Shown in pieces: positions 7,546-46,183 of a stretch of 64,000 bases of DNA. Position numbers and translations under genes: made by a program. The notes beneath the pieces are model-generated. The model was given only the letters and a program-made list of their open reading frames with translations. It did no database searches and was not told the DNA's origin. Every line of letters begins with the position of its first letter. Positions within the stretch are counted from its first letter, which is position 1. Location of the stretch: the NCBI GenBank assembly GCA_963796795.1, contig CAWCNA010000013.1:11571-75570 (forward strand). The letters are read 5' to 3'. This DNA is from Candidatus Adlerbacteria bacterium. Its GTDB lineage: Bacteria > Patescibacteriota > Minisyncoccia > Phycocordibacterales > SBAW01.

Positions 7546-7586
7546 ACATACAGTATATACCGGGTATATACACGGTCAAGCAACTT

Positions 7587-9824
7587 TTACTGCCCAGTGC
7601 TTGTTGCCTCGCTGCTCGTTGCGTTCGGGTCCACCACAATCACTGTGCGGGTTGCAGTGCCTGTCTGGCCGTTTTGGTCGGTCGCCGAGAAGAGGATGAT
7701 GTGGGTGCCCGGCTCTGTGGTATTAACCTGCAGCTGTTCGGGCGATGTACTTGTTGCCCCGTCGAGGGAGACCGTGTATCCAATGTTTGGGCTTACCGTG
7801 CTGTTGACTGTCACGCCTGGGTCTATATATGTATCACCAACATTGAGCTGTGCTGGATCGGCACCTATCAATGTGATTGTTGGCGGTGTTGAAGATGCAT
7901 TTGAGCCGCTTCCAGAGGACTGTCCTCCGTTAGAGCCGTTTGGCGTAGATGTTGCCGTGCCATTCATCACCGCAGAGAGCTGGTCGCCTGTAACGCAGAC
8001 TTCAGTTCCGTTCGATTTCGACACGCAGAGTTTGTCGGTGTGCACTTCTTTTGCAAATACTTTGTCAAAGATACCAACACTTGCATATACAACTTTGCCA
8101 ATAACATCCACTACTCCATTTCCTACACTCTGCAGAACCGATTGCAGCCCAGTCTTCATTGCATCGCTTGCATCACTAAATGCGCCTGCCCATGCCGGAG
8201 GCGTACTTGTTGCAGTTGTTTGTGCGGATGTTGTAGCAGTTGTAAGTTCCGCAAAAGTTGTCGTGCCAAGTAAGCTGTATGCATTCTGATTTATATTTGA
8301 TGCCAAAATCTGCCCTGTGAGATTTAAATTTCCATCTTCATCGAGAGTTGCAATATTCCTGCCAAGTTGATTTTTAAATACCAAACTCTGAGGATTCCCT
8401 GCTCCTTCCGCAATTCTGAAATCGTTTGCAAACACGGCGTCACCAAAGAATTGGTTGGTTCCTGCCCCGCTTCCAGAGTTAAGAAGAATCGAAGTCCCTG
8501 AAATTGCCAGACCTAGCTTATACGTTCCTACTGTTGTTGTAGCTCCACCGTTCGGTGCCCAATAATATGTACTGCCCGCAGTAAGCCCCGAGTAACCGCT
8601 GACAACACCGTTTGATGCGACAGTCACTGTACCTCCAGCGCTCGAGGCATTGGTAGCTACACCAATTACAGTCGTGTCTTGAGTTTGAAGGAGATATGCA
8701 GCAGCGATAGAGCCTGATGGGCTATATCCTAAAATAAATAAGGAGGGAGAAACCGCCGAGAGACTATATTCTGTTCCAAGGCTTCCTGGGAACGTAGATG
8801 CAGTACCCGCCGTCAACACAGTACCTGACAAGACCGAGGTGACGACCGAGTTGGAAGAATTGGTGCTTGAATAAACCACTACATGGCTTGAGTCAGGCGA
8901 TGTTATTAAAATACTGCCGTTACCAGATGAAAGGAGCGCGGCGGTGCTCCCCGCCGTTATGGTTGTACCTGAAACAGAGGCCGCAATTTCACCGGTGACA
9001 CCATTTGTGCTATCGGAATATGCAACAACAATATGTGATGAATCAGGAGAAATTATTGAAATACCACCGGGGATAGATGGGTTTAGATTGGTCTGTGTGC
9101 CTGCCGTGATAGTCGTACCCGATACGCTCGAGACAGTTGCATCCAAGAATGTAGTGCTCGTGTTCTTATACGCCATTGCAAAGTGTGTGGAGTCGAGAGC
9201 TGTAGTTATAGGAATAGTTGCATTGGTTGTACTTATCGCTGCTGGAGTACCAGCACTAATGGTAGTCCCTGAGACAGAGGCTACCACCGCACTAACCTTA
9301 AGTGAGCTTGCATTTAGATACCCCACAACGAAATGTGTCGCGTCGAGAGCAGAAACTTTTACGGAAGATTGATTGGTGCTTACCGAGTTAAGCTGAGTCT
9401 CGCTGCCCGAACCAACGTACGTTGTGCCAGACACGTTCACTATCATTGCATTTAGGAAGCCAGTATTTGGATCCTCAAATGCAACAACAAAATGAGATGA
9501 GTCGAGTGTTGCTATAGAGAGGAAGCTCAGCGGAGTACCACTTGTACTAAATATCTGGTGGGTGGTTTGAACACTAATATTCGTACCCGAGACAGTACCA
9601 AGAGCAATGGTGATTTGGTCAGGACTGCCGTCGAAATAGGCAAACGCAAAATGTGTAGAATCCAACATGGTTGCAACGGACGAACCACTAGCCGTACTAC
9701 CGTTGATTGTTGTAGAAGCAAGTGCTGTAACCGTACCTCCAGAAACTGCGCCTGCCTCGGTGGCATTGCCGTTTGTATACGCAACTACATCACCAACATT
9801 TATATTCGCGCTGCCCGAATCCAC
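7587..9824 (-). CDS. Giant surface protein paralog B, C-terminal segment ('DSTHFVVAY' repeats, FFGDAVFANDFRI domain, DUF5011-like Ig C-terminus)
   Basis: 745-aa ORF. The same reading frame stays open upstream to a stop at 9894-9896 and encodes 'ILSIDTNGNLKAKLKNLTSDYTVDSGSANINVGD', a module that is internal in the paralogs. This ORF is therefore the 3' part of the gene starting near 14912. The C-terminus 'TPPTITLIGADP...GTATRTVIVVD' is DUF5011-like. Confidence 0.7.
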   Translation of the reverse strand: MDSGSANINVGDVVAYTNGNATEAGAVSGGTVTALASTTINGSTASGSSVATMLDSTHFAFAYFDGSPDQITIALGTVSGTNISVQTTHQIFSTSGTPLSFLSIATLDSSHFVVAFEDPNTGFLNAMIVNVSGTTYVGSGSETQLNSVSTNQSSVKVSALDATHFVVGYLNASSLKVSAVVASVSGTTISAGTPAAISTTNATIPITTALDSTHFAMAYKNTSTTFLDATVSSVSGTTITAGTQTNLNPSIPGGISIISPDSSHIVVAYSDSTNGVTGEIAASVSGTTITAGSTAALLSSGNGSILITSPDSSHVVVYSSTNSSNSVVTSVLSGTVLTAGTASTFPGSLGTEYSLSAVSPSLFILGYSPSGSIAAAYLLQTQDTTVIGVATNASSAGGTVTVASNGVVSGYSGLTAGSTYYWAPNGGATTTVGTYKLGLAISGTSILLNSGSGAGTNQFFGDAVFANDFRIAEGAGNPQSLVFKNQLGRNIATLDEDGNLNLTGQILASNINQNAYSLLGTTTFAELTTATTSAQTTATSTPPAWAGAFSDASDAMKTGLQSVLQSVGNGVVDVIGKVVYASVGIFDKVFAKEVHTDKLCVSKSNGTEVCVTGDQLSAVMNGTATSTPNGSNGGQSSGSGSNASSTPPTITLIGADPAQLNVGDTYIDPGVTVNSTVSPNIGYTVSLDGATSTSPEQLQVNTTEPGTHIILFSATDQNGQTGTATRTVIVVDPNATSSEATSTGQ

Positions 9825-9876
9825 GGTATAGTCTGACGTAAGATTTTTGAGCTTTGCTTTTAAGTTGCCGTTGGTG

Positions 9877-12800
9877 TCAATAGAAAGTATCTAGAGAAAG
9901 AGTGGTTGTTGTCGCCGACGACAGGGATTCAGTAATAATGACCGCACCATTACCTCCTGAAGTTGGAGTTGAAAGATCTTGCCTTCCGGAGCCGCCACCG
10001 CCGTAGATATTTCCGGTGGGTGATCCTACACTACCCCCACCGCCTCCTGCCGTTCCAGTACCTCCACCTGCCCCACCAGTACCTCCAGTTGCTCCCCCAG
10101 AACCAGTTCCACCCGTGCCTGTACCCGCGCCACCGCCACCGCCAGAAAAAGCTCCATTTCCAGCACCACCACCGCCGCCGCCGAGAACATTAACATCGCC
10201 ACCTGTTGCACCGCCGCCACCACCACCGCCGGTGCCACCGCCGCCGCCTGTTCCGCCACTTGCTCCACTCGTACCAGTAACGCTACCTGAGCCGCCACCA
10301 CCGGAGCCGCCACCGGAGCTAGAGCCACCAGACCCTCCATCGTTACCGCCGCCGCCGCCATATGTGCCTCCACTTCCCGCACTACCTCCTCCAGATACCC
10401 CTGCAGTTGTTCCACCGCCTCCACCGCCTCCACCGCCGATCCCGCTAGAGCCACCGCCACCGCCGCCCGCAACAACAGGAGTAGCTGCTACGAAAGCCGA
10501 TGAGCCACCGCCAGCAGCATTATAAGTACTACCAGCACCTCCCACTTGATACCCTGTACCTCCAATCACACCATTCGCTCCAGCACCAACGTATACTGCT
10601 ACTGAACTTCCAAGCGCTGTCAGGGCAGCTCCTGAGTAAGTTTTTTTAGCATACCCACCGCCACCGCCACCGCCACCGCCATTACCATTACCACCATCAA
10701 CACCACCACCACCACCACCGCCGTATACTTCAACAACAATTTGAGTAAGATTTGCCGGTGGAACCCATGTGTTACCGCCAACTGTACTGAATGTAACTAC
10801 CACAGTACTTGTCGCTGCATTAGTAGTAACTGGAGAGTAAATACTGAAGGGAGAAACCGAACTGTTAGTGTTGAGTATGGAAAGCACTGACATTGGTGAT
10901 GATGTACCGATGCCGAGGAATCCTTGGTTGGTTACGGTAAGTGCTGACACTGTTGATGTCGCATATCCATCGGTTGATGTACCGATGTAGAGATTCCCTC
11001 CCATGTTTGAGAAGAGCCAGCTCTTGAGATTGGGGCCAGCCGACATATCGAAGAGTGCAAATGTTGGGCGCGTACCGGAGACATCAAAGAGCCAATTTGG
11101 TGTTGTAGTCCCTACCCCGACATTGCCGTTCTGCGCGATAAAGAGTGACGATGTACCTATAGAGCTGTTGGTACCGTTGAAGTACGCAACCTGTCCTTGA
11201 GTACCTTGCAGTGGCGAGAGGCATGCACCGTTAGTATAGAAACATCCACCCGTGAGGCTGATGCCGTCAGCAAACGTTGATGTCGCTGTTGTCGACGTGA
11301 TATTAAGCACGTTCGCCGCAAGGCCCGTGTAGAAGGTGGAGGTCGCCGTGCTGAAGTTCGCAACATTGTTGACCGAGAATATTGTCCCCGGTGTTGTCGT
11401 GCCGATGCCCACATTCCCCGCGAAATATGCGTTCCCCGTTGTTGTCGCGCCGCCGGAGATTGTGAGCCCGGTTGCTTGTCCGCCGGCCCCGGCGGTGGAG
11501 GACGCGAGCGCTAGGAACCCGCCGGACAGTGAAGAGAGGCCGATGACACCGAATGTCGAGGTCGCGGTAATCGCGCCTCCAAAGAATGTGCTACCAGAGA
11601 TGTATCCGTTGCCTTGCACTGAAAAGAGTGTGGAGGGAGATGTCGTACCAACTCCCAAGAATCCTGCTGACGTGAAGGTGGAGGTGGCCGTGCCACCGAA
11701 GTAGCCAACTGTTGCAGAGAGTTGTGTGGTTGAGGCGTTGGCATTGAAAAGCGCAAGACCACTGACATTCAAAGTGTTGGAGAGTGTCGCTGCACCGGAA
11801 ACTGCCAACGTTCCCGTCGCTGTGATGTTTGATGCAGTCAGGGTGCCATTGAAGTAACCGCCGCCCTGTACCGAAAGTGTTTGTGAAGGTGAGGTTGTAC
11901 CGATACCAACGTTACCTGTACCTTCGCCCTGCAAGATGACATTACCCCAGGTATTTTTTCCTGAAGCGTACCCTCCTTCTAGATAAATATTGCCTGCAAC
12001 AATACCCGAGTCTGTGTTGGCGGTATCACCTCCTTGAAAATACACGTCTCCTCCAAGGCTCCCTCCTGAGGGGTTCGAGTTACCAATACCAGCATTAAAA
12101 CTGGTTCGTACGTTCGATGTATCAAGTGCGTGATTACTAGCAGGCCCCACATGCAGGGTGTCTGGTGTCTGGCCATCTCCAGCTGAGGAAGAAACGGTAA
12201 GCAAGCCTCCGATGTTCACATTACTATTTGTAAAATCTATATATGCAGTTCCTCCGGATGTTTTTGCAATTCTGTAATAATTGGTATCAAGTGGCGAAGC
12301 GCCAATACCCAAATCATTTCCCGAATCACTTCGATGAATGGTCAGCAACGCAGTCGGGTTTGTTGTGCCGACACCGACATTACCAGTTGGATCGATATAC
12401 ACTCTATCCGCATTATTTGTCCGCAATAACAATCCATGGTTGCTAGCAGTACCAAAGAAGGCGTTGGATCCGGCATTGTTCAGCGCTCCCATAAATGCTG
12501 TAACAGACCCGGATTGGAATGTCATATAGCCAGCCGTAGAATTACCTACTATGTTGAAGGCATCTCCGTTGCCGACTACTTGAGTGTTTGTGTTGATGCC
12601 AACAAAAGGTGTGCCGAAGGTGCCGTTCCCAGTCGCATAGACCAAATTGGGGTTAGCAGTATTGCCAACATTCAAGAGATTATTATTTACCCCTCCCTCC
12701 ACATCTAACAAATACCCTGGCGTTGTGGTTCCGATGCCGACGCTCCCGCCTGTTGTTGCAAAGTATGCACTTGAAGTTGCAGTGATAGCACCACCAAAGA

Positions 12801-13626
12801 ATGCCGAGCCGCTGGTGTATTCGTTGCCTTGCACCGCGAGCGTTGTTGAGGGCGATGTTGTGCCGATGCCAATGTTGCCGTTGTCGGCGATGGTCATGCG
12901 TTGGAGATTGTTTGTAAAGAAGTTCAGGAAGTTGCCGTCAGTCGCGTTGATGTATGTTGTCTGGGCCGCATTCACCACGCCGCCGAGGCCCTGCCATATG
13001 TTGTTGTCGCCGAAACCTTCAAACTGATGTGTTGTCGTGTTGTAACGGACTTGGCCTGTCAGATCTTCCAACGGGCGCTGGCCTGTTGTACCCACTGGCA
13101 GGTGCAAGGCATCAGTTGCAAAAATATCTACCGACGATGCTGGCGTCGATGTGCCGATGCCGATGCGGCCGCCGGCTGCGACTTCCAAGTAGGAGGCACC
13201 TGTCGAAGATGCAACTCGCAACAAATCGGCTGTCTGGCCCGTCAAACCTTTCAAATCCAACGTTACAACATTGCCGCCGTTTGATGATGCATTTTGGATA
13301 AACAATGGCTGATTGAAGGCAAACGTTTTTGCGGTCGAGTTCCAGCCCAGCAACGCGTTGGGGACTACGTTGCCGCGGAAGAAGATGATGTTTGCATCTT
13401 CGGCATCCGACGATACGTTGTCGGAATTGATCGTAAAGTTTGCCGACTGTGTCCCGCCTATTTGCGTATTGTTGGCGACGATGTTGTTGGCAGTAATGGT
13501 GCCCACGTATGCGTTGTTCCAGAAAAACGATGGTGAACCAAGATTGTACGTAATGTTTCTGATCCGGGACGATGTCGGAGTGGATTGATGAGTTAATAAC
13601 AAGCGTATTTGAGCTGCTGTTACCAA
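9877..13626 (-). CDS. Giant surface protein paralog B, middle segment (includes Gly-rich domain)
   Basis: 1249-aa ORF. Its N-part 'YNLGSPSFFWNNAYVGTITANNIVANNTQIGGTQS...' aligns to residues ~560-900 of the intact 3594-aa paralog. It has long Gly runs ('YGGGGGGGVDGGNGNGGGGGGGGG'). Confidence 0.7.
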   Translation of the reverse strand: MVTAAQIRLLLTHQSTPTSSRIRNITYNLGSPSFFWNNAYVGTITANNIVANNTQIGGTQSANFTINSDNVSSDAEDANIIFFRGNVVPNALLGWNSTAKTFAFNQPLFIQNASSNGGNVVTLDLKGLTGQTADLLRVASSTGASYLEVAAGGRIGIGTSTPASSVDIFATDALHLPVGTTGQRPLEDLTGQVRYNTTTHQFEGFGDNNIWQGLGGVVNAAQTTYINATDGNFLNFFTNNLQRMTIADNGNIGIGTTSPSTTLAVQGNEYTSGSAFFGGAITATSSAYFATTGGSVGIGTTTPGYLLDVEGGVNNNLLNVGNTANPNLVYATGNGTFGTPFVGINTNTQVVGNGDAFNIVGNSTAGYMTFQSGSVTAFMGALNNAGSNAFFGTASNHGLLLRTNNADRVYIDPTGNVGVGTTNPTALLTIHRSDSGNDLGIGASPLDTNYYRIAKTSGGTAYIDFTNSNVNIGGLLTVSSSAGDGQTPDTLHVGPASNHALDTSNVRTSFNAGIGNSNPSGGSLGGDVYFQGGDTANTDSGIVAGNIYLEGGYASGKNTWGNVILQGEGTGNVGIGTTSPSQTLSVQGGGYFNGTLTASNITATGTLAVSGAATLSNTLNVSGLALFNANASTTQLSATVGYFGGTATSTFTSAGFLGVGTTSPSTLFSVQGNGYISGSTFFGGAITATSTFGVIGLSSLSGGFLALASSTAGAGGQATGLTISGGATTTGNAYFAGNVGIGTTTPGTIFSVNNVANFSTATSTFYTGLAANVLNITSTTATSTFADGISLTGGCFYTNGACLSPLQGTQGQVAYFNGTNSSIGTSSLFIAQNGNVGVGTTTPNWLFDVSGTRPTFALFDMSAGPNLKSWLFSNMGGNLYIGTSTDGYATSTVSALTVTNQGFLGIGTSSPMSVLSILNTNSSVSPFSIYSPVTTNAATSTVVVTFSTVGGNTWVPPANLTQIVVEVYGGGGGGGVDGGNGNGGGGGGGGGYAKKTYSGAALTALGSSVAVYVGAGANGVIGGTGYQVGGAGSTYNAAGGGSSAFVAATPVVAGGGGGGSSGIGGGGGGGGGTTAGVSGGGSAGSGGTYGGGGGNDGGSGGSSSGGGSGGGGSGSVTGTSGASGGTGGGGGTGGGGGGGATGGDVNVLGGGGGGAGNGAFSGGGGGAGTGTGGTGSGGATGGTGGAGGGTGTAGGGGGSVGSPTGNIYGGGGSGRQDLSTPTSGGNGAVIITESLSSATTTTLSLDTFY

Positions 13627-14587
13627 GCGTTGTCGAGTTCCCTGCTACAAACAGGTTGCCGCCGATGTAGGCGTCACTTGCTGTCTGGAGCACACCCGGG
13701 GCAGATGTTGCGACACCAACGCCCAAACCAACCGCAAAGTAACCACTGCCTGTCGTGCTTGCATTGCCGTTAACGATACTGTCGCCATGTGTATTGAAAC
13801 TGCCCACGTTCAATGCTCCGCTTATGGATGCATTGGTTGCAAATAAATTTGTCGTTGACGCCACCTGCGCAAAGAAGTTTGTCGTTGTTGCGTTGGAAAG
13901 AAGTGTATTGCCCGAGACTGAAAGTGTTCCGAGTGTTGTGGTTGCGGCGTTAAACGTGCCTCCAACGTTCGTGTTGCCTAGGACATCAAGGCTGCCAACG
14001 CTCCCATATGTTGCAAAAATGTTATCAGCCTTCGTATCACCGTTAAGTGTTGTGTTTGAAAGGTTATTTATAAGCTCAGGAAGAACAAAGTTCTGCAACG
14101 GGCTTTCGCGGCCGGGGTTTTCAAGGTTCGAAATCTGGATGGCAAACTTGTTGGAAAGGTCCCCGAGGCGCGCTGTGAGTTCGTCTTCAGAGATTCCACC
14201 AGACCCTACAGCCTGTTGCACAACCGTACGTTCAATGACCGGATAATTATTTACGATGGTAGGCGGTGGAGTCACAACGGGAACCGTTGGTACCGAAGCA
14301 GAACTGTTTCTGAGGAGAAGTCTGGCCGACCGAAGGGAGGAGATCCGAGGACTTCTCTGAAGAATTGTTCTGTGGAGGTACATCAGCAACTTTTGAAGTA
14401 TGTCCAAACAACGTTGCGAATATTCCTGACAAAAAGTTTGAAGTGCCTGTGACAGCTGGTGCGGTTGTGCCGAAGAAAGGTGTTTCAGCTGCAGAGACCG
14501 CAGCAAATGATGGTCCGCCAGCTGGCGGATTTGTATTAGGTACAAGCGTCGAAGCAAACACAAGCGAGCCGAGCAGCAGGATCGCAC
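13112..14587 (-). CDS. Giant surface protein paralog B, segment (real frame only about 13620-14320)
   Basis: 'SEDELTARLGDLSNKFAIQISNLENPGRESPLQNFVLPELINNLSN...' matches 'TEDELTTRLADLQNKFAVQISNLENPGRESPLENFALPELINNLSN' of the intact paralog. The ORF's own N- and C-terminal parts are out-of-frame junk. It is joined to the flanking ORFs by frameshifts. Confidence 0.55.
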   Translation of the reverse strand: MRSCCSARLCLLRRLYLIQIRQLADHHLLRSLQLKHLSSAQPHQLSQALQTFCQEYSQRCLDILQKLLMYLHRTILQRSPRISSLRSARLLLRNSSASVPTVPVVTPPPTIVNNYPVIERTVVQQAVGSGGISEDELTARLGDLSNKFAIQISNLENPGRESPLQNFVLPELINNLSNTTLNGDTKADNIFATYGSVGSLDVLGNTNVGGTFNAATTTLGTLSVSGNTLLSNATTTNFFAQVASTTNLFATNASISGALNVGSFNTHGDSIVNGNASTTGSGYFAVGLGVGVATSAPGVLQTASDAYIGGNLFVAGNSTTLGNSSSNTLVINSSIHSDIVPDQKHYVQSWFTIVFLEQRIRGHHYCQQHRRQQYANRRDTVGKLYDQFRQRIVGCRRCKHHLLPRQRSPQRVAGLELDRKNVCLQSAIVYPKCIIKRRQCCNVGFERFDGPDSRFVASCIFDRCLLLGSRSRRPHRHRHIDASIVGRYFCN

Positions 14588-25700: not shown

Positions 25701-28700
25701 TCGATGTTGCCGAGGTGGAAGTGGTAAGGTCATTTACACTCGTTGTTGCGAGTAACGAATCAATGTGTGTCGAGAGCACATTAACTTGTGCAATAAAACT
25801 GGTGAACAAATTCGAAATTGTATCACTCACTGAAGGCGTCGAGCTTGCATCACTTTGTGTGCTGCTTGCCGATGAGCCGTTTAAGAAACGATTTGTTATT
25901 GCTTGAATAAGGCCGCCAACAAAATCGAACGCATCTGTCGTTGTTGCAGTCGGCTGCGCGAGCAATTGCTGTCCCACCGCCGAGGCATTCGTCCCTTTTT
26001 GAAGATTCAAAAATACTTCTATCGTTGTGCCGGTTGAACTTGCCGTAAATGCCTCAAGCGCATTTCCAATTGACGGGTCGAGCGGGCCCGCTTTCATACC
26101 AACACCCGGCACTGACGAAATAGTTATTGGGTCGCCAATTGCGATGGGGCCGTTTTCAAGCGAGACCTTTGTTGGCACACGGCCCGACAGCGCCACTTCC
26201 CGCTGCCCGCTTGTGTCGGTAGGTTGTGCAAGCACAAGCCCTGGGTCTGTTGAGATAACACCTGCGAGGATATTTGCCTCTCCTTCCGTAGCGCGCGTTA
26301 CATTCACCGGAGTTGATGTATCAAACGCGACGATATCGCCGGCCGCTATAGAAGAGTCGAGTACTGGGTAGTATTCGGCGAGGTCGGCACCGCCGTTTGT
26401 GAGATAGCGCACAATAACAATACCCGAACCGCCCGTACCCGAGCCGGTATTCCATCCGCCATTTGGAGCCCAGTACGAACATCCGCCGCCGCCGCCGCCG
26501 GTGTTTGCTATCGCATTCGGAACTGCACTTCCTTGCGTGGTTCCGTTAACCCCAGCGGAGTATGAAGAATAGCTGTAATAGGATGTTGTGCCGCAGCCAC
26601 GGCCGCCGCCGGCAAATCCATCGCCTGCGCGCTCGCTCGAGTTACCGCTACCGCCGCCGCCGCCTGCGTATGCAACCGACGAACCGGTGATGGAACTCAC
26701 GTATCCCGCACCGCCGTTGCCACCTGTCGCACCACTACTGCCGCTAATACCCTGGCCGCCTGCACCTCCGCCGCCTGCACCAGTCCAACTTACGGTGCTA
26801 GCGCCGCCGGCATTTCCATACCCATTTGTTTGCGTAGATGCACCTGCAGCACCGCCGCCTTGTGCCGCGCCGCCGCCCGAACCGCCGCTACCTGCGGCGG
26901 TTGCACTCCCAGTCGAGGCGCCGCCGCCGCCGCCAAGTGCTGTGTAGGTACCGAAGACGGAACTTTGGCCATTATTACCAACGCCAATGGTGACACTTGG
27001 AACGGCAGCACCGCCGTTACCAACAGTAACCGTATAGGCGCCGGGAGTTACGGGAACAATGGTGTCAATAACGCCGCCGCCGCCGCCGCCGCCGTTTGCG
27101 TTTGTCGTATTGTTATTGCCGCCCGAGCCACCGCCGCCGACAACGAGCACTTCCACGTTTGCACCCGTTGCGGCAGAAGAAACGGTAAATGTGCCACTTG
27201 TTGTGAAAGTCTGGATAGTATAGAGACCGCTCGTTGTCACCGTGCCACCGGATGCACTCACCTGGCCGGTTGGAGTTGGAGTTATATCTGCGACACTTGT
27301 CGAAGGATACGAGCGACCCGGACCCCACATTATGCGCACCGCGCCCGAGCCACCATTGCCACCGCCAAACGATGTGCCGCCACCGCCACCGCCACCGCCG
27401 TATGCACCACCATATATAGTACCGTTTGCACTTTGGCTACTACTTGGCTCGCCGAAGGCACCGTTCTGGCCGCCCGAACCACCACCACCGCCACCACCGG
27501 TCCCTAATGTACAGCCACTCACACCGTCAGAGCCTTGCCCCAAAATGCCAACGCCGCCGCCGCCGCCCGAACCGTACGTAGAAGAATATGAGCACGGGCC
27601 GCCGCCGCCGCCCGACCCAGTTTGTGCTGCAACACTGTTACCATCTGCACCGTGGCCTGCATATCCGCCTGCGCCACCCGCATCATAGGTGGTGCTTGTA
27701 TTACCACCGCGGCCGCCGCCGTCGCCGGTAAAACCGCCACCCGAATTTACAGTTGATGCCGTTGACCCCGAACCTCCTTGCCCCGCACCATAGCCAGCAA
27801 CAGTAGCCGTGCTTACGAAATAAGAATTGTTACCGTTCGTGGGCGAAGTACTGTACGTGCCGCCCGCACCGACCACCACGGTATAGGTCTGGCCCGGTAC
27901 CACGGTAATATTATTTTTATATCCGAGGCCGCCGCCCGCACCGCCATGGTTCGACCAGGACGACGAACCGCCGCCGCCGCCGCCGACTGCAACCACGCTG
28001 ATGCTTGTGACGCCCGCTGGTGCCGTCCACGAATAGGTGCCGGGGGCAGTGTAGGCTTGCTGGCCTGGTGCGGGAATAGTTGTAAGGCTAAATGTTGCGA
28101 TGGTCGGGCCTACTGTTAGTGTTGAAGTTAAGGTAACGGAATAAATACTCGAGGACGTCATACTCACTCGCACATATTGATTATTGAGTACAGTACCCGG
28201 CGAACTGGTCCAATTTTGGACGACAGACGCACACGCGCTGTCACTGCACACTTGGTATTGGGGCGATCCAGAGCCACTCACCGAAATTGCTACAGGAATG
28301 TTTATGCCCGTAATCTGCTGAGTCGTCGACGTTGCAACGCTAGACAATTGAACAAGGCTGCCTGCGGTTTGATCGGTTGTGAGTGTAGAAGGAAATGAGC
28401 GCCCACTGCCCCATATAATGCGCACGGCACCCGAGCCGCCTGCGCCGCCGCCAACAGTTGTACCAGGGCCACCGCCACCGCCACCGTATGCGCCGCCTGT
28501 GATTGTTCCGTTCGTACTTTGGTTACTATTTGGCTCTCCATCAGCTCCATTTGCACCACCCGAACCTCCGCGGCCGCCTTCCAAACCGGCACCTGAGGTA
28601 CCTGCCACCCCACTTGTACCTTGGCCCAAAATACCAACACCGCCGCCGGCAGAAGTGCCGTAAGTGCTCGAATAGTAATACCCGCCGCCGCCACCACCAC

Positions 28701-31700
28701 CTGAGCCGTTGAATCCGCTGCCTACACCGGCTCCGTTGCCACCATTTCCGGCGTAGCCGCCTGCGCCGCCGCCGCTTTGGTAGTTGGGAGCATTACCTCC
28801 TGCGCCGCCGCCGTCGCCGACATAGCCGCCGCCGGATGAGTTGTTATTCGCACAACCAGTTGTGCCTGTCCCAGCGTTACCTCCGCCGCATCCTTCAACT
28901 GTTGCTGTCGAATTAAAATATGAACTGCCTCCAATACCCCCCACAGATGCTGTGGTACCTCCTGCACCAACCACAACGGTATACGTCTGGCCCGGTACCA
29001 CAGTAATATTATTTTTATATCCGAGGCCGCCGCCTGAACCTGCTGGATTCGCCCATGTTTGCGAACCGCCGCCACCGCCGCCGACTGCAACCACACTCAC
29101 GCTTGTCACGCCGGCTGGTGCTGTCCAGCTATAGGTGCCGGGGGCAGTGTAGGCTTGCTGGCCTGTAACAGCTGAATTACTAAATGAGAGAGGGTTAGGC
29201 GTTCCAAGGCCTGTGCCAACTTGCCATGTTGCACTGCCATCGCCTGCCCACACCGTCACGGTGCTTGTTGCAAGGTTGGTTGCAAACGTTGTAGTGCGTA
29301 ACTGCAATGTCTGGCCGCTTGAGATATATCCTGCCGTCTCCCATGCGCTACCATTAATGCTGAACTGCGGATCGCCGTCGCCAATAATACGAACAGGAAC
29401 GGCGCCATCAAAGTTGGTGAGCGTATCGATAGCCGACGATGTTGCGGCACTCAACTGCGCTTGTGTCGTAGACGCAAAGGTAAACGTAGCAGGAATAATT
29501 GTCGGATTATTTATCGGCGCCCATGTCGTGGTGCCGCCCGTATTTGTGCATCCTTCAAAATTAGATGTTGCTTGATTGAATCTAAAAATACCGAGTTGCG
29601 CCGTAGTGCACGTTGCGGAAGAATTTCCTACTCGTATATTTCCGGCAACATCGAGCGTTGTCACTGCTGTTGTTGTTCCAACACCAACATTTCCGTTTGG
29701 CGATATAAACAATGTTGAAGTGCCTAACGCTTTGTTAGTTCCTGAAAGATATGCGACTTGGCCTTGAGTACCCGAAAGGCTTCCTAAACACTGGCCCTGA
29801 ACGGAGACACAGCCAGTTGTTACATTAATCGCACTGGCTTGTATGCCCGCAGAAAAGGTTGAGGTCGCGTTGTCTATCAAGTAGATGGAATTTGTTCCAA
29901 CATGGAGTTGGCCTTTTATATCGACGTTGCCAGTGAAGGTCGATGAGGCAGCACCACTGTTTGCTACGTAGAGCGGTCCATTAACAGCGAGGGTCGCTGA
30001 TGGAGTGGATGTGCCGATGCCGACCGAACCCGTACTCGTTACAACAAATGAAGGATAGGTAAGCGGCCCTGTCGAGGTTGCGATAAAGAAATTATTGCCG
30101 CCGTTTTGCAACACATCCGTTCCCGCAAACCAATTGCCGAGGGCGGCTGCAGTATTTCCTCCCCCCGCAAATGCAATGGCAGTCGCAAATGAATTAAGGT
30201 CGGTATTATCGATTTGCAAACCATAGCGCAAGTCCCCAGTAGCGCGCCCGTTGCCAAGTACCACAAGCGGGCCGCCAGGGGTCGACGTTCCGATACCTAT
30301 GCGGCCGCTCAACAGGAACGAATTGCCGAGGTTCGTATTAAGCGTGGTGTACCCGAGCCCCACAGGGCCCGACGCGGACACGTACAACCCAGATGAGTTG
30401 CCCGGCGCTATCTGGATGTCATGGAAGTTTCCACCCAGAGGCGCTGTCGTGGTGAGTTTTAATATATTTGATATGAACGAGAGATTTCCATCTTCATACG
30501 TAGACGGGCTTCCAACATTCCAAATATTTATACCTGCGGGGCCAAAGTTGCCTGAAAGGAAGCGCGACGTAGAAGAGCCAAGGAGCGAGGTGTTGTCGGA
30601 CGCCGGCGTAATACTTCCGCCTACGTTAATACTGCCGTTTGTATTTATAAAAAGCGACGACGTGCCCATTGCCGTGTTCGTGCCAGAGAAATATGCAACT
30701 TGTCCCGGCGTGCCAATAAGTGCCGGACTCGACGTTGCAATAAGTTTTCCGCTTGCATCAACTGCAATAAACGAGCCTGCGGGAAGCCCGAGCGATGAAA
30801 GTGTCAGTGTGCTCGTTGCTGTGATGGCTCCGCCGAAGAATGCAGAACCACTCGTGTATTGATTGCCTTCCACTGCAAGCGTTGTTGATGGCGATGTCGT
30901 ACCAATCCCAACATTGCCATTGTCTGCAATGGTCATGCGCTGGAGGCTATTTGTAAAAAAATTGAGGAAGTTACCGTCAGTTGCCGTAATGTACGTTGTC
31001 TGTGCAGCGTTGATAACACCCCCCAGGCCTTGCCATACGCTATTGTCACCAAAACCTTCAAACTGATGCGTGGTTGTGTTGTAGCGAATTTGTCCCGTTA
31101 AATCTTCTGCGGGGCGCTGTGCTGATGTACCAACCGGCAAGTGCAGCGCGTCAGTTGCAAAAATATCAAGAGAAGATGCTGGGGTTGAAGTGCCTATACC
31201 AATCCTTCCACCCGACCCAACTTCCAAATAACTCGCCCCTGTTGACGACGCAATGCGGAGAAGATCTGCAGTTTGTCCTGCCAAACCTTTCAAATCGAGT
31301 GTCACAACATTGCCGGTATTGTTCGACGCATTTTGTATAAATACAGGTTGGTTGAATGAGAAGTTCTTTGTGGAAGAATTCCATCCGAGTACGGCATTCG
31401 GTACTACGTTGCCGCGGAAGAAGATGAGGTTGGCGTCTTCTGCATCTGCACTTACGTTGTCAGAGTTGATTGTGAAGTCGGAGCTTTGTGTGCCTCCAAT
31501 CTGGGTGTTGCTTGCAACGATGTTGTTGGCGTTAATGGTGCCGACGTAGACATTTCGCCAGAAGAACGAGGGCGAACCGAGATCATATTGGATATTTTGA
31601 TCAGGCACGATGCTCGAATTTATTGATGAGTTGATAGTGAGAGTGTTTGAAGATGAGTTGCCAAGCGTTGTTGAGTTTCCGGCTACGAATAAGTTTCCAC

Positions 31701-33462
31701 CGATGTAGGCATTGCTTGATGTTTGGAGCACGCCCGGTGCTGATGTTGCGATGCCAACGCCAAGGCCGCCAGCAAAATATGCATTACCGGTGGTTGTTGA
31801 ATTACCTGAAATGTTTAATGAAAGAAGTGTCGTTGAGGCGGCAGTGAATGAACCGAAGCTGGCCGTTTGAGCAAAGAGGTTGGTAGAAGATGCGGTGGTT
31901 GCAAAAAATGCACTTGAAGTTGCGTTAGCGAGTGTAGTACCTGCCTGCGCAGTCAGGTTGCCAGTAACCACCAATGCTCCCAGCGTCGAAGAGGTTGCAG
32001 TGAATGTTCCCACAGATGCAGTCTGTGCGAAAAGATTTGTTGTAGAGGCAAGAGTTGAAAAGAAATTGGTAGATGTTGCGTTTGCCAGCGTCGTATCCCC
32101 CAAGACAGTAAGTTTGTTAAGTGTAGTCGTGCCAAGTGATGTCAGATCCGCGCTGAAATAACCCGCACCTTGCGAAAAGATACTTGCTGCGGCAAGCGTT
32201 CCTGCAAATGTCGACGTGGATGTGTTTTGGACAATGAGGTTTGAAACGGTCGTTGTGCCCGCAAACGCCGTGCCTGGGGTTCCGTTGTTGTTCTCGACCG
32301 TGAGGTTGCCTGCAATGGTGGTATTTCCATCAACATTCACATCGCTGTTGAAGTACGCGATGCCTGTTGTCGTTGCATTGCCGTTTACGGTGAGGTTGGC
32401 GGTTGTTGTTGTTGCGGTGTTCAGTACGCCACTGATGTTGGTGTCGGAGAGGTTTGTGGTGCCGGTGACACCGAGCACGCTTGTTTGCAAATACTGTACT
32501 GCAATATTGTCCGCAACCGTATCACCATTGAGGCGTACGTTCGAAAGATTGTTGATGAGCTCCGGCAATGCAAAGTTCTCTAGTGGGCTTTCGCGGCCTG
32601 GGTTTTCAAGGTTAGAGATCTGAACTGCAAATTTGTTTTGTAGATCTGCGAGGCGCGTTGTGAGTTCGTCTTCGGTGACGCCGGAAACTACGTAGGCAAT
32701 TGGAGTCGAAGCAGCCGAAGCAGAATTGTTCTGCGAAGGCGTCGCAAGAGTCTGCGAAGAAACAGATGGGTATGTGGCCTGTGCAGAACTTACAGCACTG
32801 CTCGCTGATTCCGGGTACGCAGATTCCCTGCTAGGAATCTGCTCAGTCCGGGGGTCCACGGAGTGGACGACGCTCTGCGGAGCCCCTGCATCAGCAACAG
32901 TGCTTCCACTCTTTCCAAACAACGTTGCAAACATTCCAGACAAAAAGTTTGATGCACCTGCAAAGGCATTTCCTGTGTGGGGCAATACAACTGCCGGTGG
33001 CGTTGTGCCAAAGAATGGAGTTTCTGATTGTGATACTGCTGCTGTAAGTGCCTCGCCCGCGGCCGGGCTATGGCCGAGGGTTGATGCAAACACGAGCGAG
33101 CCTACCAAAAGTATTGCACCCGCAGCAAGACCTATAGGAGCACCGATAGTTGCCGTATGAAATGCAAGAACACTTTTCTGTACAAATGTGCCGTGTTGTT
33201 TTTGATACGCAAGCGTTTCATTGCGGCGTTGCTGCCCAAGAGATTCTGCACGCTCCTGCTTTGCAAACATTCGCGCTTGCTCAAATACAGCAATAGATGC
33301 CGGGTCGACGTACCACTGGCCTTCAAGCAATTGGCCAACAAGTTTACCTTCGCGGCACAGCTTCGAAACATAATCCTGTGCGCACTTCAAACGCGCCGCC
33401 GCTTTTCGAGCTGATAGCAGCGGTCGGCCGTCGTTTGAAAATATTTTTTTCTGAGGAGACAT
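22678..33462 (-). CDS. Giant surface protein paralog A, intact 3594-aa ORF (N-terminal excisionase-like HTH, TM anchor, β-rich extracellular region)
   Basis: Uninterrupted 10.8-kb ORF. N-terminus 'SARKAAARLKCAQDYVSKLCREGKLVGQLLEGQWYVDPASIAVF', then TM 'IGAPIGLAAGAILLVGSLVFASTL'. Three Gly-rich domains begin 'YTAPGTYSWTAPAGVTS.SVVAVGGGGGGS' and end 'GAVRI.WG'. The 'LYVTSTGG...FSLKRS' cassette is present. There are 'AALDSTHFVVAY' repeats of about 40 aa, at least 8 copies. Confidence 0.8.
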   Translation of the reverse strand: MSPQKKIFSNDGRPLLSARKAAARLKCAQDYVSKLCREGKLVGQLLEGQWYVDPASIAVFEQARMFAKQERAESLGQQRRNETLAYQKQHGTFVQKSVLAFHTATIGAPIGLAAGAILLVGSLVFASTLGHSPAAGEALTAAVSQSETPFFGTTPPAVVLPHTGNAFAGASNFLSGMFATLFGKSGSTVADAGAPQSVVHSVDPRTEQIPSRESAYPESASSAVSSAQATYPSVSSQTLATPSQNNSASAASTPIAYVVSGVTEDELTTRLADLQNKFAVQISNLENPGRESPLENFALPELINNLSNVRLNGDTVADNIAVQYLQTSVLGVTGTTNLSDTNISGVLNTATTTTANLTVNGNATTTGIAYFNSDVNVDGNTTIAGNLTVENNNGTPGTAFAGTTTVSNLIVQNTSTSTFAGTLAAASIFSQGAGYFSADLTSLGTTTLNKLTVLGDTTLANATSTNFFSTLASTTNLFAQTASVGTFTATSSTLGALVVTGNLTAQAGTTLANATSSAFFATTASSTNLFAQTASFGSFTAASTTLLSLNISGNSTTTGNAYFAGGLGVGIATSAPGVLQTSSNAYIGGNLFVAGNSTTLGNSSSNTLTINSSINSSIVPDQNIQYDLGSPSFFWRNVYVGTINANNIVASNTQIGGTQSSDFTINSDNVSADAEDANLIFFRGNVVPNAVLGWNSSTKNFSFNQPVFIQNASNNTGNVVTLDLKGLAGQTADLLRIASSTGASYLEVGSGGRIGIGTSTPASSLDIFATDALHLPVGTSAQRPAEDLTGQIRYNTTTHQFEGFGDNSVWQGLGGVINAAQTTYITATDGNFLNFFTNSLQRMTIADNGNVGIGTTSPSTTLAVEGNQYTSGSAFFGGAITATSTLTLSSLGLPAGSFIAVDASGKLIATSSPALIGTPGQVAYFSGTNTAMGTSSLFINTNGSINVGGSITPASDNTSLLGSSTSRFLSGNFGPAGINIWNVGSPSTYEDGNLSFISNILKLTTTAPLGGNFHDIQIAPGNSSGLYVSASGPVGLGYTTLNTNLGNSFLLSGRIGIGTSTPGGPLVVLGNGRATGDLRYGLQIDNTDLNSFATAIAFAGGGNTAAALGNWFAGTDVLQNGGNNFFIATSTGPLTYPSFVVTSTGSVGIGTSTPSATLAVNGPLYVANSGAASSTFTGNVDIKGQLHVGTNSIYLIDNATSTFSAGIQASAINVTTGCVSVQGQCLGSLSGTQGQVAYLSGTNKALGTSTLFISPNGNVGVGTTTAVTTLDVAGNIRVGNSSATCTTAQLGIFRFNQATSNFEGCTNTGGTTTWAPINNPTIIPATFTFASTTQAQLSAATSSAIDTLTNFDGAVPVRIIGDGDPQFSINGSAWETAGYISSGQTLQLRTTTFATNLATSTVTVWAGDGSATWQVGTGLGTPNPLSFSNSAVTGQQAYTAPGTYSWTAPAGVTSVSVVAVGGGGGGSQTWANPAGSGGGLGYKNNITVVPGQTYTVVVGAGGTTASVGGIGGSSYFNSTATVEGCGGGNAGTGTTGCANNNSSGGGYVGDGGGAGGNAPNYQSGGGAGGYAGNGGNGAGVGSGFNGSGGGGGGGYYYSSTYGTSAGGGVGILGQGTSGVAGTSGAGLEGGRGGSGGANGADGEPNSNQSTNGTITGGAYGGGGGGPGTTVGGGAGGSGAVRIIWGSGRSFPSTLTTDQTAGSLVQLSSVATSTTQQITGINIPVAISVSGSGSPQYQVCSDSACASVVQNWTSSPGTVLNNQYVRVSMTSSSIYSVTLTSTLTVGPTIATFSLTTIPAPGQQAYTAPGTYSWTAPAGVTSISVVAVGGGGGGSSSWSNHGGAGGGLGYKNNITVVPGQTYTVVVGAGGTYSTSPTNGNNSYFVSTATVAGYGAGQGGSGSTASTVNSGGGFTGDGGGRGGNTSTTYDAGGAGGYAGHGADGNSVAAQTGSGGGGGPCSYSSTYGSGGGGGVGILGQGSDGVSGCTLGTGGGGGGGSGGQNGAFGEPSSSQSANGTIYGGAYGGGGGGGGTSFGGGNGGSGAVRIMWGPGRSYPSTSVADITPTPTGQVSASGGTVTTSGLYTIQTFTTSGTFTVSSAATGANVEVLVVGGGGSGGNNNTTNANGGGGGGGVIDTIVPVTPGAYTVTVGNGGAAVPSVTIGVGNNGQSSVFGTYTALGGGGGASTGSATAAGSGGSGGGAAQGGGAAGASTQTNGYGNAGGASTVSWTGAGGGGAGGQGISGSSGATGGNGGAGYVSSITGSSVAYAGGGGGSGNSSERAGDGFAGGGRGCGTTSYYSYSSYSAGVNGTTQGSAVPNAIANTGGGGGGCSYWAPNGGWNTGSGTGGSGIVIVRYLTNGGADLAEYYPVLDSSIAAGDIVAFDTSTPVNVTRATEGEANILAGVISTDPGLVLAQPTDTSGQREVALSGRVPTKVSLENGPIAIGDPITISSVPGVGMKAGPLDPSIGNALEAFTASSTGTTIEVFLNLQKGTNASAVGQQLLAQPTATTTDAFDFVGGLIQAITNRFLNGSSASSTQSDASSTPSVSDTISNLFTSFIAQVNVLSTHIDSLLATTSVNDLTTSTSATSTPATPWSGAFAASSGLVRGALASLTDPIVHVFDHALYATTGLFNGVVADTLTASTTTTGTLTAATTTTTALCLGGTCINSFDQLGTTTASSSQPIDLSGFVSTSTFNNALALATSSFFASLPDFTQFVSSSTLSTYITGTQLASALSAIASSSANGTLLAGGTLDGSLVPAGDNLFTLGTATNRFTDVFAKNVNAGDLTFTETNSAVSGAPLVPGDVVSLYVTSTGGTTHTVPINLNTALNSNNWGSNNIYLNTSGSLGLGIASTTAPKAKLDVEGNYASGNSSLLTLANLSGANGNAAIPYSFYIPSNTGDLNIASNDTGTGSLINNSYSAWDFQLGGQSDAFSLKRSAPGTQSYASVFNISNTGNLSIPGNLSIGGTFATGQLQFTNASTSQLSIFQKAYFGATATTTIDAAGNIVGAGTLSAGTSTLSNLIVTNLSTSTFASGISITGGCFQYNGTCLTTPQGTTGQLTYFSGTNTAVGTSTLTLSAAGFFGIGTTSPLATLSIQGTPGSTDIFDLASSTGANVLKVDATGALTAKLKNLTADYVVDSGSAQINVGDIVSYINGKATKVVNTTGTIPSAGTPVALNSTNSTNISAAALDSTHFVTAYNDGSTGYVYSVVSSVSGSTITPGTPVLITSNALNEVSVAALDSTHFVVAYIEATPYYVSAVVSTVSGGTTITPGSAVTVNATYSAGYPISAAALDSTHFVVAYQNSVTTFANAVASSVSGTTITAGTPIALNAVPSDYESVAALDSTHFVVGYRNSSTTFANAVASSVSGTTITVGTPIVLNAVLSNYDSAAKLDSTHFVVAYGDGTNGGDAAVVSTVSGTTITAGTPTALNSIGTSNVSVAALDSTHFAVAYKNISSSNFIGAVVSSVSGTTITASTPVILNGVGSLYTSVAAFDSTHFAVAYQNVTNAPFAATAVVGTLPLVTSPNILGMATNATTTTNNTVTVASNGIVTGLSGLTGEVRTTSAQLASLLPYSPTKSASPSPPLRCFSTRAMGE

Positions 33463-33881
33463 TAGTCCGATATAGCTTTTATTTATGCAGTGATTTCGGA
33501 GGGAGCACTACGTTTATTGTACGCGGTGTTGCGAATATTCTTCAGAGAATTTTCATAAAAAACTGTGGATAGAATATATAAAAAATTATATTAAAAACAA
33601 TTTCTAGAATGCCTTATAACAAGAGTTAGGTATTACTTTTGATATAAAAATCATTTTTTTATATTACGTTCGTATATCGAGAAAACTCTTATTGCATAAA
33701 AATAACTTTTATTTATAAATCTCGTGTAAACGTTTTACAAAGAAGAATAAAGATTTATCGTCTTGCCGTACCCATATCTCGGCTAGAAGAGTTCGTATAT
33801 AAAAAGAAAAATACTCCTAAAAATCTAATTTCTAGAAGTATTTTGTGCCGCCACTAGGGCGTTATCTAGCTCGCTGGTTTC
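33463..33881. promoter_or_regulatory. AT-rich 420-bp upstream region of giant gene A
   Basis: Sharp drop in GC between two minus-strand genes. Two identical 11-mers AATTTCTAGAA (TTCTAGAA palindrome) at 33599..33609 and 33827..33837. Several TATA-like tracts. Confidence 0.45.
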
Positions 33882-34664
33882 TTACTGTTGGCCGTTTTGA
33901 CAGTTTCCAAAAATGAAGCACAGTGTCTTTTCTTGCGAATATGAGACGCTTGCCGTCTGCCCTTTCTGCACCGTTACCGTTGTATCCAAGCCCAATGACC
34001 CGAAAAAGGTAAATGCCAAAACTACGGCTCCTAAAGCCGTTACTCCTGTAACTGCTAGCGCCGTTACAAAAGGATTTCTTTTTTGTACGCGTCTTTCTTC
34101 TACTATCACTACCGGCTTCTCTGCGGGCGCAACATATATCGCCGCCGCAGGCACCGTTCTCGGTATATCGTTTGTTCGTTTTTGTATAGCAGGAAACAAC
34201 GGGCCCGAATCCGAGATATAGGTAAGCCCCGTTTTTTTTATCGGCACACTCCGAACAGGCTCTGAAATAAATACTTCTTCTTTTCGAATCGGGACAACAT
34301 ACTCGGTCGGAGCAGGAACAGGCTTGGCCGAAACGTTGGTAGGCACGACGGTGCCGGACATAGGAGAATTTTCAACAGGAAATTCTCCGCGTTGAGGCGA
34401 GCTTGGTTCCTGCGCAGGTACATATGTTTTTGCGACTATCTGTACTGGGGTAGCCGAGGGAGCAGGCGATATGTAGGTCTTGCTCTCCTTGTTGAGGTAG
34501 TCGGCAAACGAGCGTTCTTCCACGTACCATGCCCGGCCCACCTTGGTACCCAAAATCTTGCCTCCACGGATAAGCTGGCCGATATAATCCGAATGGTACT
34601 TGTTTTCCTTGGCAATACGTTTAGACGAGATGTATCGCTTCCCCGAGATTTCTAGTTCATCCAT
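33882..34664 (-). CDS. Small paralog of the giant-protein N-terminal module (excisionase-like HTH plus single TM), 260 aa
   Basis: Start placed at 'MDELEISGKRYISSKRIAKENKYHSDYIGQLIRGGKILGTKVGRAWYVEERSFADYL', which shares the motif with both giant genes. Pro/Val-rich linker, then TM 'FVTALAVTGVTALGAVVLAFTFFGSLGL' and a ~40-aa tail. Confidence 0.6.
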   Translation of the reverse strand: MDELEISGKRYISSKRIAKENKYHSDYIGQLIRGGKILGTKVGRAWYVEERSFADYLNKESKTYISPAPSATPVQIVAKTYVPAQEPSSPQRGEFPVENSPMSGTVVPTNVSAKPVPAPTEYVVPIRKEEVFISEPVRSVPIKKTGLTYISDSGPLFPAIQKRTNDIPRTVPAAAIYVAPAEKPVVIVEERRVQKRNPFVTALAVTGVTALGAVVLAFTFFGSLGLDTTVTVQKGQTASVSYSQEKTLCFIFGNCQNGQQ

Positions 34665-34741
34665 TTGCCTACAGTATATACATATAATAAAAACCCCGCT
34701 AAGCGGGGTGTGCAAAACTATGCAAGGCTAAGCCTTGCATG

Positions 34742-42426: not shown

Positions 42427-42506
42427 AGACTACCATAAATCACCTGTTTTTACCCGAAAAATGACCCTACAATGCTCGCGCCACGGAGGTGACGGAAAAG
42501 AAAAAT

Positions 42507-46122: not shown

Positions 46123-46183
46123 ATAGGGAGCATTGTAGCAGAAGTGCCTTTTTGCACCAAAGAACAGGTATACTCCTCTATAT

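Follow-up and report, generated by a model that had tools for sequence, protein, structure and literature searches.

In a 64,000-nt stretch of a Candidatus Adlerbacteria genome (contig CAWCNA010000013.1, hereafter the window), the locus between 7.6 and 33.5 kb probably consists of two genes for giant surface attachment fibres, which we call gene A and gene B, each product being anchored in the membrane at its N-terminus and built from parts resembling those of phage tail fibres. A first-pass annotation had recognized giant, modular, adhesin-like surface proteins of a bacterium belonging to the Candidate Phyla Radiation (CPR) at this locus, and our analysis agrees: the closest relatives are proteins of Ca. 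Kaiserbacteria and Paceibacterota, and both products carry one N-terminal transmembrane (TM) anchor and an ectodomain rich in Gly, Ser, Thr, Ala and Asn. All substantial coding frames between 7.6 and 33.5 kb were on the minus strand, as it had stated for the large open reading frames (ORFs). It had also described a family of many recombined paralogous genes, where we instead found two genes split by eight frame breaks (J1–J8, Table 1). The repetition from 15.9 to 25.5 kb is a 3.2-kb tandem triplication inside gene A with a spacing of 3,204–3,221 nt. The apparent swarm of small mosaic genes most likely results from frameshifts in the assembly together with this internal threefold repeat.

A stop-to-stop map showed ten large minus-strand frames overlapping in different phases and forming two end-to-end chains. 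Joining the frames of both genes required frame switches only, with zero stop codons read through, and the frames downstream of the breaks remained open for 200–900 amino acids (aa). At each of J1–J8, similarity to an in-frame paralogue passed straight from one frame into the next, e.g. GLSGLT/GSTYYF, IVPDQ/NITYNLGSPSFFW and YATL/SDISGLV (the slash marks the break), and intact proteins of other genomes aligned unbroken over all eight junctions. P0130 (2,047 aa, 49–54% identity) covered J1, J3 and J5, while P0123 and P0124 covered J2 and J4 and were in frame there; the five gene A breaks were together covered by P0130, P0004, P0123 and P0124, all intact. In gene B, J6 and J7 were covered by P0128 and P0130, and J8 by P0045. 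The fragments were 49–57% identical to intact homologues, and intact relatives of 2,047–5,777 aa had both the N-terminal head and the C-terminal block of genes A and B. The start codon of gene B agreed with the N-terminus of the intact homologue P0206 in the N-terminal alignment. Based on the chained frames and on the intact homologues spanning the breaks, we read the ten ORFs as two genes.

That the pieces are instead about ten separate, shuffled paralogous genes of 280–3,594 aa, each expressed alone, is very improbable. The public record, an 85,530-bp contig annotated with the fragmented ORFs, does list separate proteins (P0001, P0002, P0121, P0122), and ORF starts can be found. However, only two of the ten pieces carry the head module, with its helix-turn-helix (HTH) domain and TM helix, and the rest lack an export signal. 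Adjacent pieces also overlap in different frames while intact single proteins align across their boundaries, and the internal ORF N-termini are out-of-frame junk, such as MQQSRHQHLLLHLTS and MPQASPTPSSPPS.

The eight breaks are likely insertion and deletion errors of the assembly, as judged from the assembly sequence rather than from reads. Breaks of this kind also affect several other genes of the window, and on this ground we read J1–J8 as most likely assembly indels. SecA (39914-42429, minus strand) was observed in at least nine overlapping frames, all with well-conserved SecA sequence; at ~1 frameshift per 250 nt this was the densest occurrence in the window and most likely reflects a poorly polished assembly. 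One frameshift in rpiB (5015-5456, minus strand), placed near 5100 by alignment to the Kaiserbacteria RpiB of L001, has the context TCCAGAGG and does not fall in a homopolymer, and a Polysacc_synt flippase (47594-48851, plus strand) seems to be split into two overlapping ORFs. A DsbD/CcdA-like gene (37279-38039, minus strand) looks truncated or split, with only profile positions 123-192 matched.

We consider it unlikely that the breaks are real and mark a recently inactivated gene pair, or a population consensus of broken alleles, in which case the sole product, if any, would be the N-terminal 3,594 aa of gene A. Giant surface genes are often lost, not every break lies in a homopolymer, J2 and J4 agree in context and occupy homologous positions, and J8 is an imperfect 13-nt tandem duplication. 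This duplication creates the stop that ends the 1249-aa ORF and parts it from the 745-aa ORF, and homology continues across it (LSIDTNGNLKAKLKNLTSDY vs VDASGALTAKLKNLTADY). On the other hand, an essential gene broken at least nine times (SecA), with rpiB broken once, fits error better than decay, and the eight breaks with no stop to read through, the open downstream frames and the preserved identity of the fragments to intact homologues all speak against pseudogenes.

The same 9-mer (CTTTTCTGA) occurs at J2 and J4, which are homologous sites in units whose flanks are only ~55–65% identical. Either a consensus error specific to this context or a real +1 shift that was inherited could account for it. 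A further possibility, to which we give hardly any credence, is that these +1 breaks (CTT TTC TGA, then in-frame GAC or GAT; with one T fewer the site reads CTTTCTGA) are programmed recoding or phase-variable sites, which would set the number of displayed distal propeller units to one, two or three. The shared 9-mer between diverged flanks and the intact downstream frames would suit such a mechanism, and the stop directly after the shift codon is formally like the prfB frameshift site, CUU UGA C. No Shine-Dalgarno-like stimulator was found upstream, however, re-pairing of tRNA-Phe from UUC to UCU would be poor, and the six other breaks have unrelated contexts. The relatives P0123 and P0124 are in frame at the site, and the window is full of other indels.

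Genes A and B each encode exactly one hydrophobic helix, which lies behind a basic ~100-aa segment resembling HTH_17 (17 K/R in the first 100 aa of gene A). Over the 6,058 aa of gene A a single 19-mer had a mean Kyte-Doolittle value > 1.7, and the helix is conserved in homologues. Gene A scored 20.5–20.6 bits against PF12728 (HTH_17; E = 5e-4), under the Pfam cut-off of 27 bits. The same family was matched by 17 of the 22 aligned homologous N-termini at E < 0.01 (best E = 1.2e-8), and the homologue P0126 scored 31.2 bits, over the cut-off; a PDB sequence search with the N-terminal profile returned nothing significant. The part behind the helix (2,300 or 5,900 residues) is 59% Gly, Ser, Thr, Ala and Asn, with Lys, Arg and Glu at ~1% each. 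Following the positive-inside rule, the N-terminus would stay cytoplasmic and the helix would act as an uncleaved signal-anchor (N-in/C-out). The ectodomain would be exported and fold into a long, probably trimeric fibre, the trimeric state being suggested by relatives that carry the trimer-specific Peptidase_S74, Gp34_trimer and C1q.

The predicted cytoplasmic HTH could be an anchoring, partner-binding or signalling domain. Were HTH_17 functional, the protein might be a contact sensor in one polypeptide, with binding or pulling of the 2,000–6,000-residue external fibre relayed via the TM helix or through the N-terminal domain being released, though we regard this as quite unlikely. If true, DNA or a partner in the cytoplasm would receive the signal, which would report host touch to the episymbiont. 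RodZ and ToxR/CadC are bitopic envelope proteins with a cytoplasmic HTH and have the topology predicted for genes A and B (N-terminal cytoplasmic HTH, one TM helix, large external part); their HTH is, however, of the Xre or OmpR type and not of the excisionase/MerR-like HTH_17 type, and the external fibre here is thousands of residues long. Directly upstream of gene A, a 277-aa paralogue (33882..34715, minus strand) represents the head module alone, its HTH-like domain being joined by a long linker rich in Pro, Ser and Val to a TM helix at the C-terminus. It has a weak HTH_17 match (E = 0.0075) and was aligned with the family, in which proteins of ~300 aa are numerous among the head-module relatives. 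This paralogue could be a partner or decoy of the contact sensor.

The motifs and modules listed by the first-pass annotation were all present, and their repetition goes far beyond what chance would give (repeat families; copies matched one another at tblastn E = 0 to 1e-30). The stalk of gene A matched the PHROG tail-fibre families 9942, 18345 and 1417, and ~100 aa of it were similar to a T4-like cyanophage virion structural protein and to gp7. Its NIQYDLGSPSFFW... block is 84% aa identical to gene B 12772-13557 (over 271 aa). The Gly-rich domains follow, of which one to three had been proposed. We found three PF21722 (Gly_rich_2) domains in gene A, while the Gly-rich region of gene B was not recognized by Pfam. 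The gene A match reached 105.9 bits (E = 4e-30) in three stretches, the best covering profile positions 1-225/226, against a cut-off of 24.3 bits, and gene A segments scored 38–43 bits. These domains also matched PHROG 2295 (1e-46) and PHROG 4474 (1e-49), as well as 863, 11737 and 356 (tail proteins), and a PDB sequence search with the Gly-rich domain gave nothing significant.

The ADLAEYY domain of gene A aligned to P0149 5387-5531, P0159 4289-4407 and P0126 2909-3072 and had no Pfam or PDB sequence match. In intact relatives this domain is positioned just ahead of the C-terminal block. In gene A it is followed by a copy of that block (C-block) and then by the three tandem units, each in the order module 4 (LYVxSTGG…FSLKRS), fibre, propeller, small β-domain (G.SGLT) and FFGDAVF…DEDGNLN, so that gene A resembles a string of several complete fibre proteins. 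The blade array of unit 2 had a period of 147 nt (6.6 copies), and the tandem repeats, which had been put at ~40 aa, measured 147–150 nt or 49–50 aa. A ~450-nt core of module 4 was 99–100% identical between units 1 and 2 (18246-18700 vs 21467-21920), and that of unit 3 (24671-25100) was 90–96% identical to these, while the propeller DNA beside the core was just 40–70% identical between units. This suggests recent gene conversion, or possibly local assembly collapse.

Gene B has a simpler order of head, stalk, Gly-rich low-complexity region and one propeller end. The Gly-rich region had no Pfam match and no BLASTP similarity to the Gly-rich domain of gene A, and its weak PHROG 863 match falls on the same profile region as domain 3 of gene A. 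The C-terminus matched PF16403 (formerly DUF5011) at 37.2 bits over profile positions 1-71/71; with the domain found at the end of gene A, this bears out the DUF5011-like Ig (immunoglobulin) C-terminus that had been named earlier, at 37–41 bits against a cut-off of 27. As proteins, A and B are least alike at the N-terminus (47% identity) and most alike in the stalk block (84%). Their DNA was 74.6% identical in a stretch of 996 nt and 77% in one of 156 nt, lower than the 85-90% first given, and the paralogy does not cover the full spans of 29.5-33.4 and 11.2-15.0 kb. A peptide common to ORFs 30863..31066 and 12647..13027 had been quoted in support and does occur in both, but these ORFs lie on the plus strand and are antisense shadows of the real genes. 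Two larger shadow ORFs were observed opposite propeller- and Ig-coding DNA, at 22975-23901 (plus strand, 308 aa) and 7474-8289 (plus strand, 271 aa); these are not genes but arise from the bias and repetitiveness of the codon content.

The 745-aa distal end of gene B was modelled with AlphaFold2 from an alignment of 78 sequences, at a mean predicted local distance difference test (pLDDT) score of 75. The model shows a seven-bladed β-propeller at residues ~50-370 (pLDDT mostly > 85), a β-domain at 375-450 and an Ig-like β-sandwich (pLDDT 74–85). The best Foldseek matches of the propeller model were uncharacterised tailed-phage proteins (E = 6e-25, 20–25% identity over ~470–500 columns), followed by Photorhabdus PLL/PHL, Burkholderia lectins, integrin α, CylK, YncE and WD40. 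The propeller sequence family (ALDSTHFVVAY…VSGTTI) had no Pfam model and no solved relative by PDB sequence search; tblastn against phage genomes found nothing for the propeller or the Gly-rich domain, and an NCBIfam scan of 10 segments found nothing.

Amino acid identity among the four copies was 30–56% for the propeller and 57–68% for the β-domain, and among copies it was 70–76% for the fibre, 70–95% for FFGDAVF and 79–95% for the module 4 cassette. Judged from these sequences, divergent propellers beside conserved modules form the pattern of conserved scaffolds with diversified heads. Putative binding heads are these propellers together with the Gly-rich domains and the Ig-like tip; by analogy with the way a phage uses its tail fibres, they may fasten the bacterium, whose genome is small, to a host cell or a surface glycan. 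The three heads in series in gene A would give multivalency or breadth.

A full HMMER scan with the head module yielded 991 cluster representatives at E ≤ 1e-3 and 102 at E ≤ 1e-10, from which our counts are taken (a word-indexed search gave only three matches). Many of these relatives are 2–5.8 thousand aa (kaa) long, and the named ones come from Paceibacterota or Minisyncoccia. Their middle parts vary, with Gp34_trimer and C1q in P0126 and LVIVD propellers in P0156. The nearest organism-named protein, P0004 (Ca. Kaiserbacteria), is 47% identical over 59% of the 745-aa query, with 58% identity to gene A's unit 3, and carries the propeller, FFGD modules, Peptidase_S74 and the Ig-like domain. 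Its gene (L001) adjoins GAPDH and rpiB, syntenic with the present locus. A Y1 (IS200-type) transposase lies between the fibre gene and GAPDH in L001 (6810-7484), where runs of N (scaffold gaps) break up the fibre gene. Peptidase_S74 (PF13884) was found in P0004, P0013, P0036 and P0123, the last of which is annotated as a tail fiber domain-containing protein. A scan of genome contigs with the C-terminal half found only three distant loci; a 3,605-aa ORF of L003 (Kaiserbacteria), found via the C-terminal end, contains LVIVD propellers and the Ig-like domain. Literature searches returned no description of this head-module fibre family.

The first-pass annotation could assign the module set to no named family, and named a clean mapping onto a well-described family, such as phage tail-fibre or S-layer domains, as speaking against its reading. 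This is partly the case: several modules are of the phage tail-fibre type (PHROG families, Gly_rich_2, cyanophage virion proteins), while module 4 and FFGDAVF stayed unassigned. A prophage or tailocin remnant, in which these genes would be true phage tail fibres, is nevertheless extremely unlikely. The PHROG tail-fibre matches, the phage proteins among the best structural matches of the propeller and the Y1 transposase next to the homologue in L001 would fit it. Yet the flanks and the other scanned ORFs of the window are housekeeping or glycan-synthesis genes, with no capsid, terminase, baseplate or integrase match. In addition, both proteins are anchored by an N-terminal TM helix, a Kaiserbacteria genome has the homologue in the same place beside GAPDH, and the head module tops hundreds of cellular proteins. 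We rejected the prophage reading on account of the housekeeping flanks and the TM anchor.

There is also a slim chance that the proteins form an S-layer or cell-envelope lattice and not discrete attachment fibres. Their Thr/Ser/Gly/Asn-rich, acidic composition with very few Cys and their size are, from general knowledge, like those of some S-layer proteins, and a large glycosylation gene cluster lies nearby. No SLH or S-layer Pfam match was found in the large ORFs and most of gene A in segments, however, and the architecture is one of elongated fibre modules with terminal heads; nothing tested supports the S-layer-like reading first offered. Three other candidates were considered. A relative (P0215) bears the Joint Genome Institute (JGI) name of trimeric autotransporter adhesin, but genes A and B had no YadA-family Pfam match and have an N-terminal TM anchor and an Ig-like C-terminus, with no YadA-type β-barrel anchor, for which this reading was rejected. 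For a diversity-generating retroelement target, no reverse transcriptase was found among the scanned ORFs of the window, and the repeats found are coding paralogues only. A toxin-delivery (polymorphic toxin) protein does not fit the C-terminus, which is Ig-like and in which no toxin domain was found.

Several observations weigh against two intact genes for attachment fibres. Trimerisation and binding are both functions that we infer. In the monomer models the fibre segments, the FFGDAVF module and most linkers were of low confidence, and the AlphaFold2 model of module 4 (6-sequence alignment) had a pLDDT of 34.6 and was unusable. Beyond this contig, just three homologues of module 4 were found, all of them fibre proteins of the Paceibacterota type, and PF13884 was not found in genes A and B by the Pfam scan of ORFs and segments. 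The breaks are also clumped, with 0 in the 10.8-kb ORF A1 and at least nine in the 2.5 kb of SecA. Finally, the common context of J2 and J4 at homologous sites and the diverged 13-nt duplication of J8 look more like real mutations than random error.

Table 1. Features of the two reconstructed putative fibre genes (positions in the window; in J1, J3, J5 and J7 the slash marks the break).
Feature	Position	Strand	Description
Gene A	33462→15301	-	~6,058 aa; six overlapping open frames; 5 frame breaks (J1–J5)
Gene A chain	33462-22681 → 22945-22163 → 22236-19519 → 20330-19080 → 19174-16973 → 17001-15304	-	
Gene A HTH_17-like domain	33277..33420	-	aa 15-62; predicted cytoplasmic
Gene A TM helix	33073..33147	-	aa ~103-130
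Gene A TPFFGTT...FATLFG motif	32914-33021	-	after TM helix; conserved
Gene A stalk	30811..32637	-	NKFA..LINNLSN motif; Asn/Thr/Ser fibre; conserved NIQYDLGSPSFFW... block
Gene A Gly_rich_2 domains (three) and Ig-like spacers	26392..29595	-	aa ~1290-2357
Gene A ADLAEYY domain	25993..26391	-	aa 2358-2490; PHROG 6427, 19602 (tail fibre protein C-terminus)
Gene A unit 3 (proximal)	22300..25236	-	cassette 24655-25236; fibre 24055-24654; propeller 22870-24054; FFGDAVF 22532-22660
Gene A unit 2	19090..22160	-	cassette 21451-22053; propeller 19873-20793, running past J3; FFGDAVF 19320-19448
Gene A unit 1 (distal)	15904..19080	-	cassette 18230-18832; propeller 16342-17587 (across J5); FFGDAVF 16012-16140
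Gene A C-terminal block	15676-15903	-	same block ends P0126, P0149, P0159
Gene A PF16403 Ig-like domain	15343-15597	-	40.9 bits; E = 2e-10; profile 1-71/71; cut-off 27
Gene B	14912→7587	-	~2,429 aa; four overlapping open frames; 3 frame breaks (J6–J8)
Gene B chain	15089-14250 → 14599-13115 → 13644-9880 → 9890-7590	-	
Gene B HTH-like domain	14742-14888	-	in head of gene B (14541..14888)
Gene B TM helix	14541-14615	-	aa 97-125
Gene B Gly-rich low-complexity region	9922..10794	-	weak PHROG 863 match; E = 0.0017
Gene B distal end	7632..9821	-	7-bladed β-propeller 8652-9821; β-domain; FFGDAVF 8322-8450
Gene B C-block	7959-8201	-	
Gene B Ig-like domain	7632-7886	-	
J1	22791..22794	-	G4 run (GLSGLT/GSTYYF); one base fewer than in-frame paralogues
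J2	22160..22168	-	context CTT TTC TGA
J3	19872..19878	-	CGAGAGC (FVVGYRE/SNNTGYANAVV)
J4	19077..19085	-	context CTT TTC TGA; position homologous to J2
J5	16981..17001	-	within propeller blade (…NVDANSE/NTDANVAV…)
J6	14197..14370	-	range only; low-complexity linker past TM helix
J7	13556..13558	-	A3 run (IVPDQ/NITYNLGSPSFFW); one extra base vs gene A
J8	9875..9900	-	imperfect 13-nt tandem duplication CTTTCTCTAGATA / CTTTCTATTGACA; 10/13 identical

The locus is bordered by GAPDH (6158-7216) on one side and by the 277-aa HTH/TM protein and GatB (33882-36142) on the other. Beyond these the flanks contain rpiB and transketolase on the GAPDH side and Obg, DsbD and SecA on the GatB side, with no phage structural context. 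The type IV pilin gene reported nearby was confirmed at 2500-2997 (minus strand, 165 aa), with the motif GFTLIELLVV and the N-terminus MSVQKKSRGFTLIELLVVV; this pilin-like gene lies 4.6 kb from the locus, amid pentose-phosphate genes. A large surface-glycan gene cluster occupies 43810-63177 and includes a 770-aa protein in which a Wzy_C O-antigen-ligase-like part is joined to TPR repeats. The cluster also has glycosyltransferases of the families GT2 (at least three), GT1/GT4 (one) and GT11 (one), along with genes for an MBOAT acyltransferase, asparagine synthase, SDR, methyltransferase and GDSL-like protein. Its products could glycosylate the Ser/Thr-rich fibres or pili. Rfam and tRNA scans were empty, and promoter and terminator scans did no better than shuffles.

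Genes A and B share features with several known systems. Phage tail fibres and receptor-binding proteins with the self-cleaving intramolecular chaperone Peptidase_S74 (endosialidase / T5 pb1 type) have the same GxxGIGTxxP-type repeats and LGsxxxRFxxxY motifs, and the cellular Paceibacterota proteins P0004 and P0123, which carry PF13884, share the propeller, FFGDAVF, module 4 and the C-block with this locus. In contrast to such tail fibres, genes A and B have no detectable PF13884, use a TM-helix cell anchor instead of a baseplate, are 3 to 10 times longer and concatenate several fibre units per polypeptide. The PF21722 proteins, which include Gly-rich phage minor tail proteins, are represented by three full-length matches, in gene A only. 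The seven-bladed fold of PLL/PHL-type β-propeller lectins (Photorhabdus, Burkholderia BP39L) appears in the model, but identity to these lectins and to integrin α-type propellers is 9–12%, and the non-lectin CylK, WD40 and YncE score equally well. Among giant adhesins, those of Saccharibacteria are required for epibiotic growth (PMC10633639), and giant proteins have been described from Omnitrophota (bioRxiv 10.1101/2023.11.21.568195). These are likewise very large, mostly extracellular and modular proteins of reduced-genome lineages for which an attachment role has been proposed. Genes A and B differ in having no SecA-DEAD, dockerin or multiple TM segments and in reaching ~6 kaa, not > 30 kaa, and an attachment role is proposed for them from sequence.

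The indels make gene boundaries unreliable here, and such assemblies overstate how many paralogous surface genes there are. To our knowledge, how CPR bacteria of the Parcubacteria type recognize and hold their hosts is largely unknown outside Saccharibacteria. The kind of family is already familiar, as giant modular adhesin-like proteins of host-dependent ultrasmall bacteria; here the parts are of the phage receptor-binding type and sit on an HTH–TM head. As far as we found, this is a large undescribed family in which a conserved HTH–TM head is combined with interchangeable modules of the phage-receptor-binding type, including at least two sorts of propeller as well as Gly-rich, C1q and Ig domains. 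Such an arrangement suggests phage-style, rapidly diversifying binding heads on cell-anchored fibres, which are candidate determinants of host specificity.

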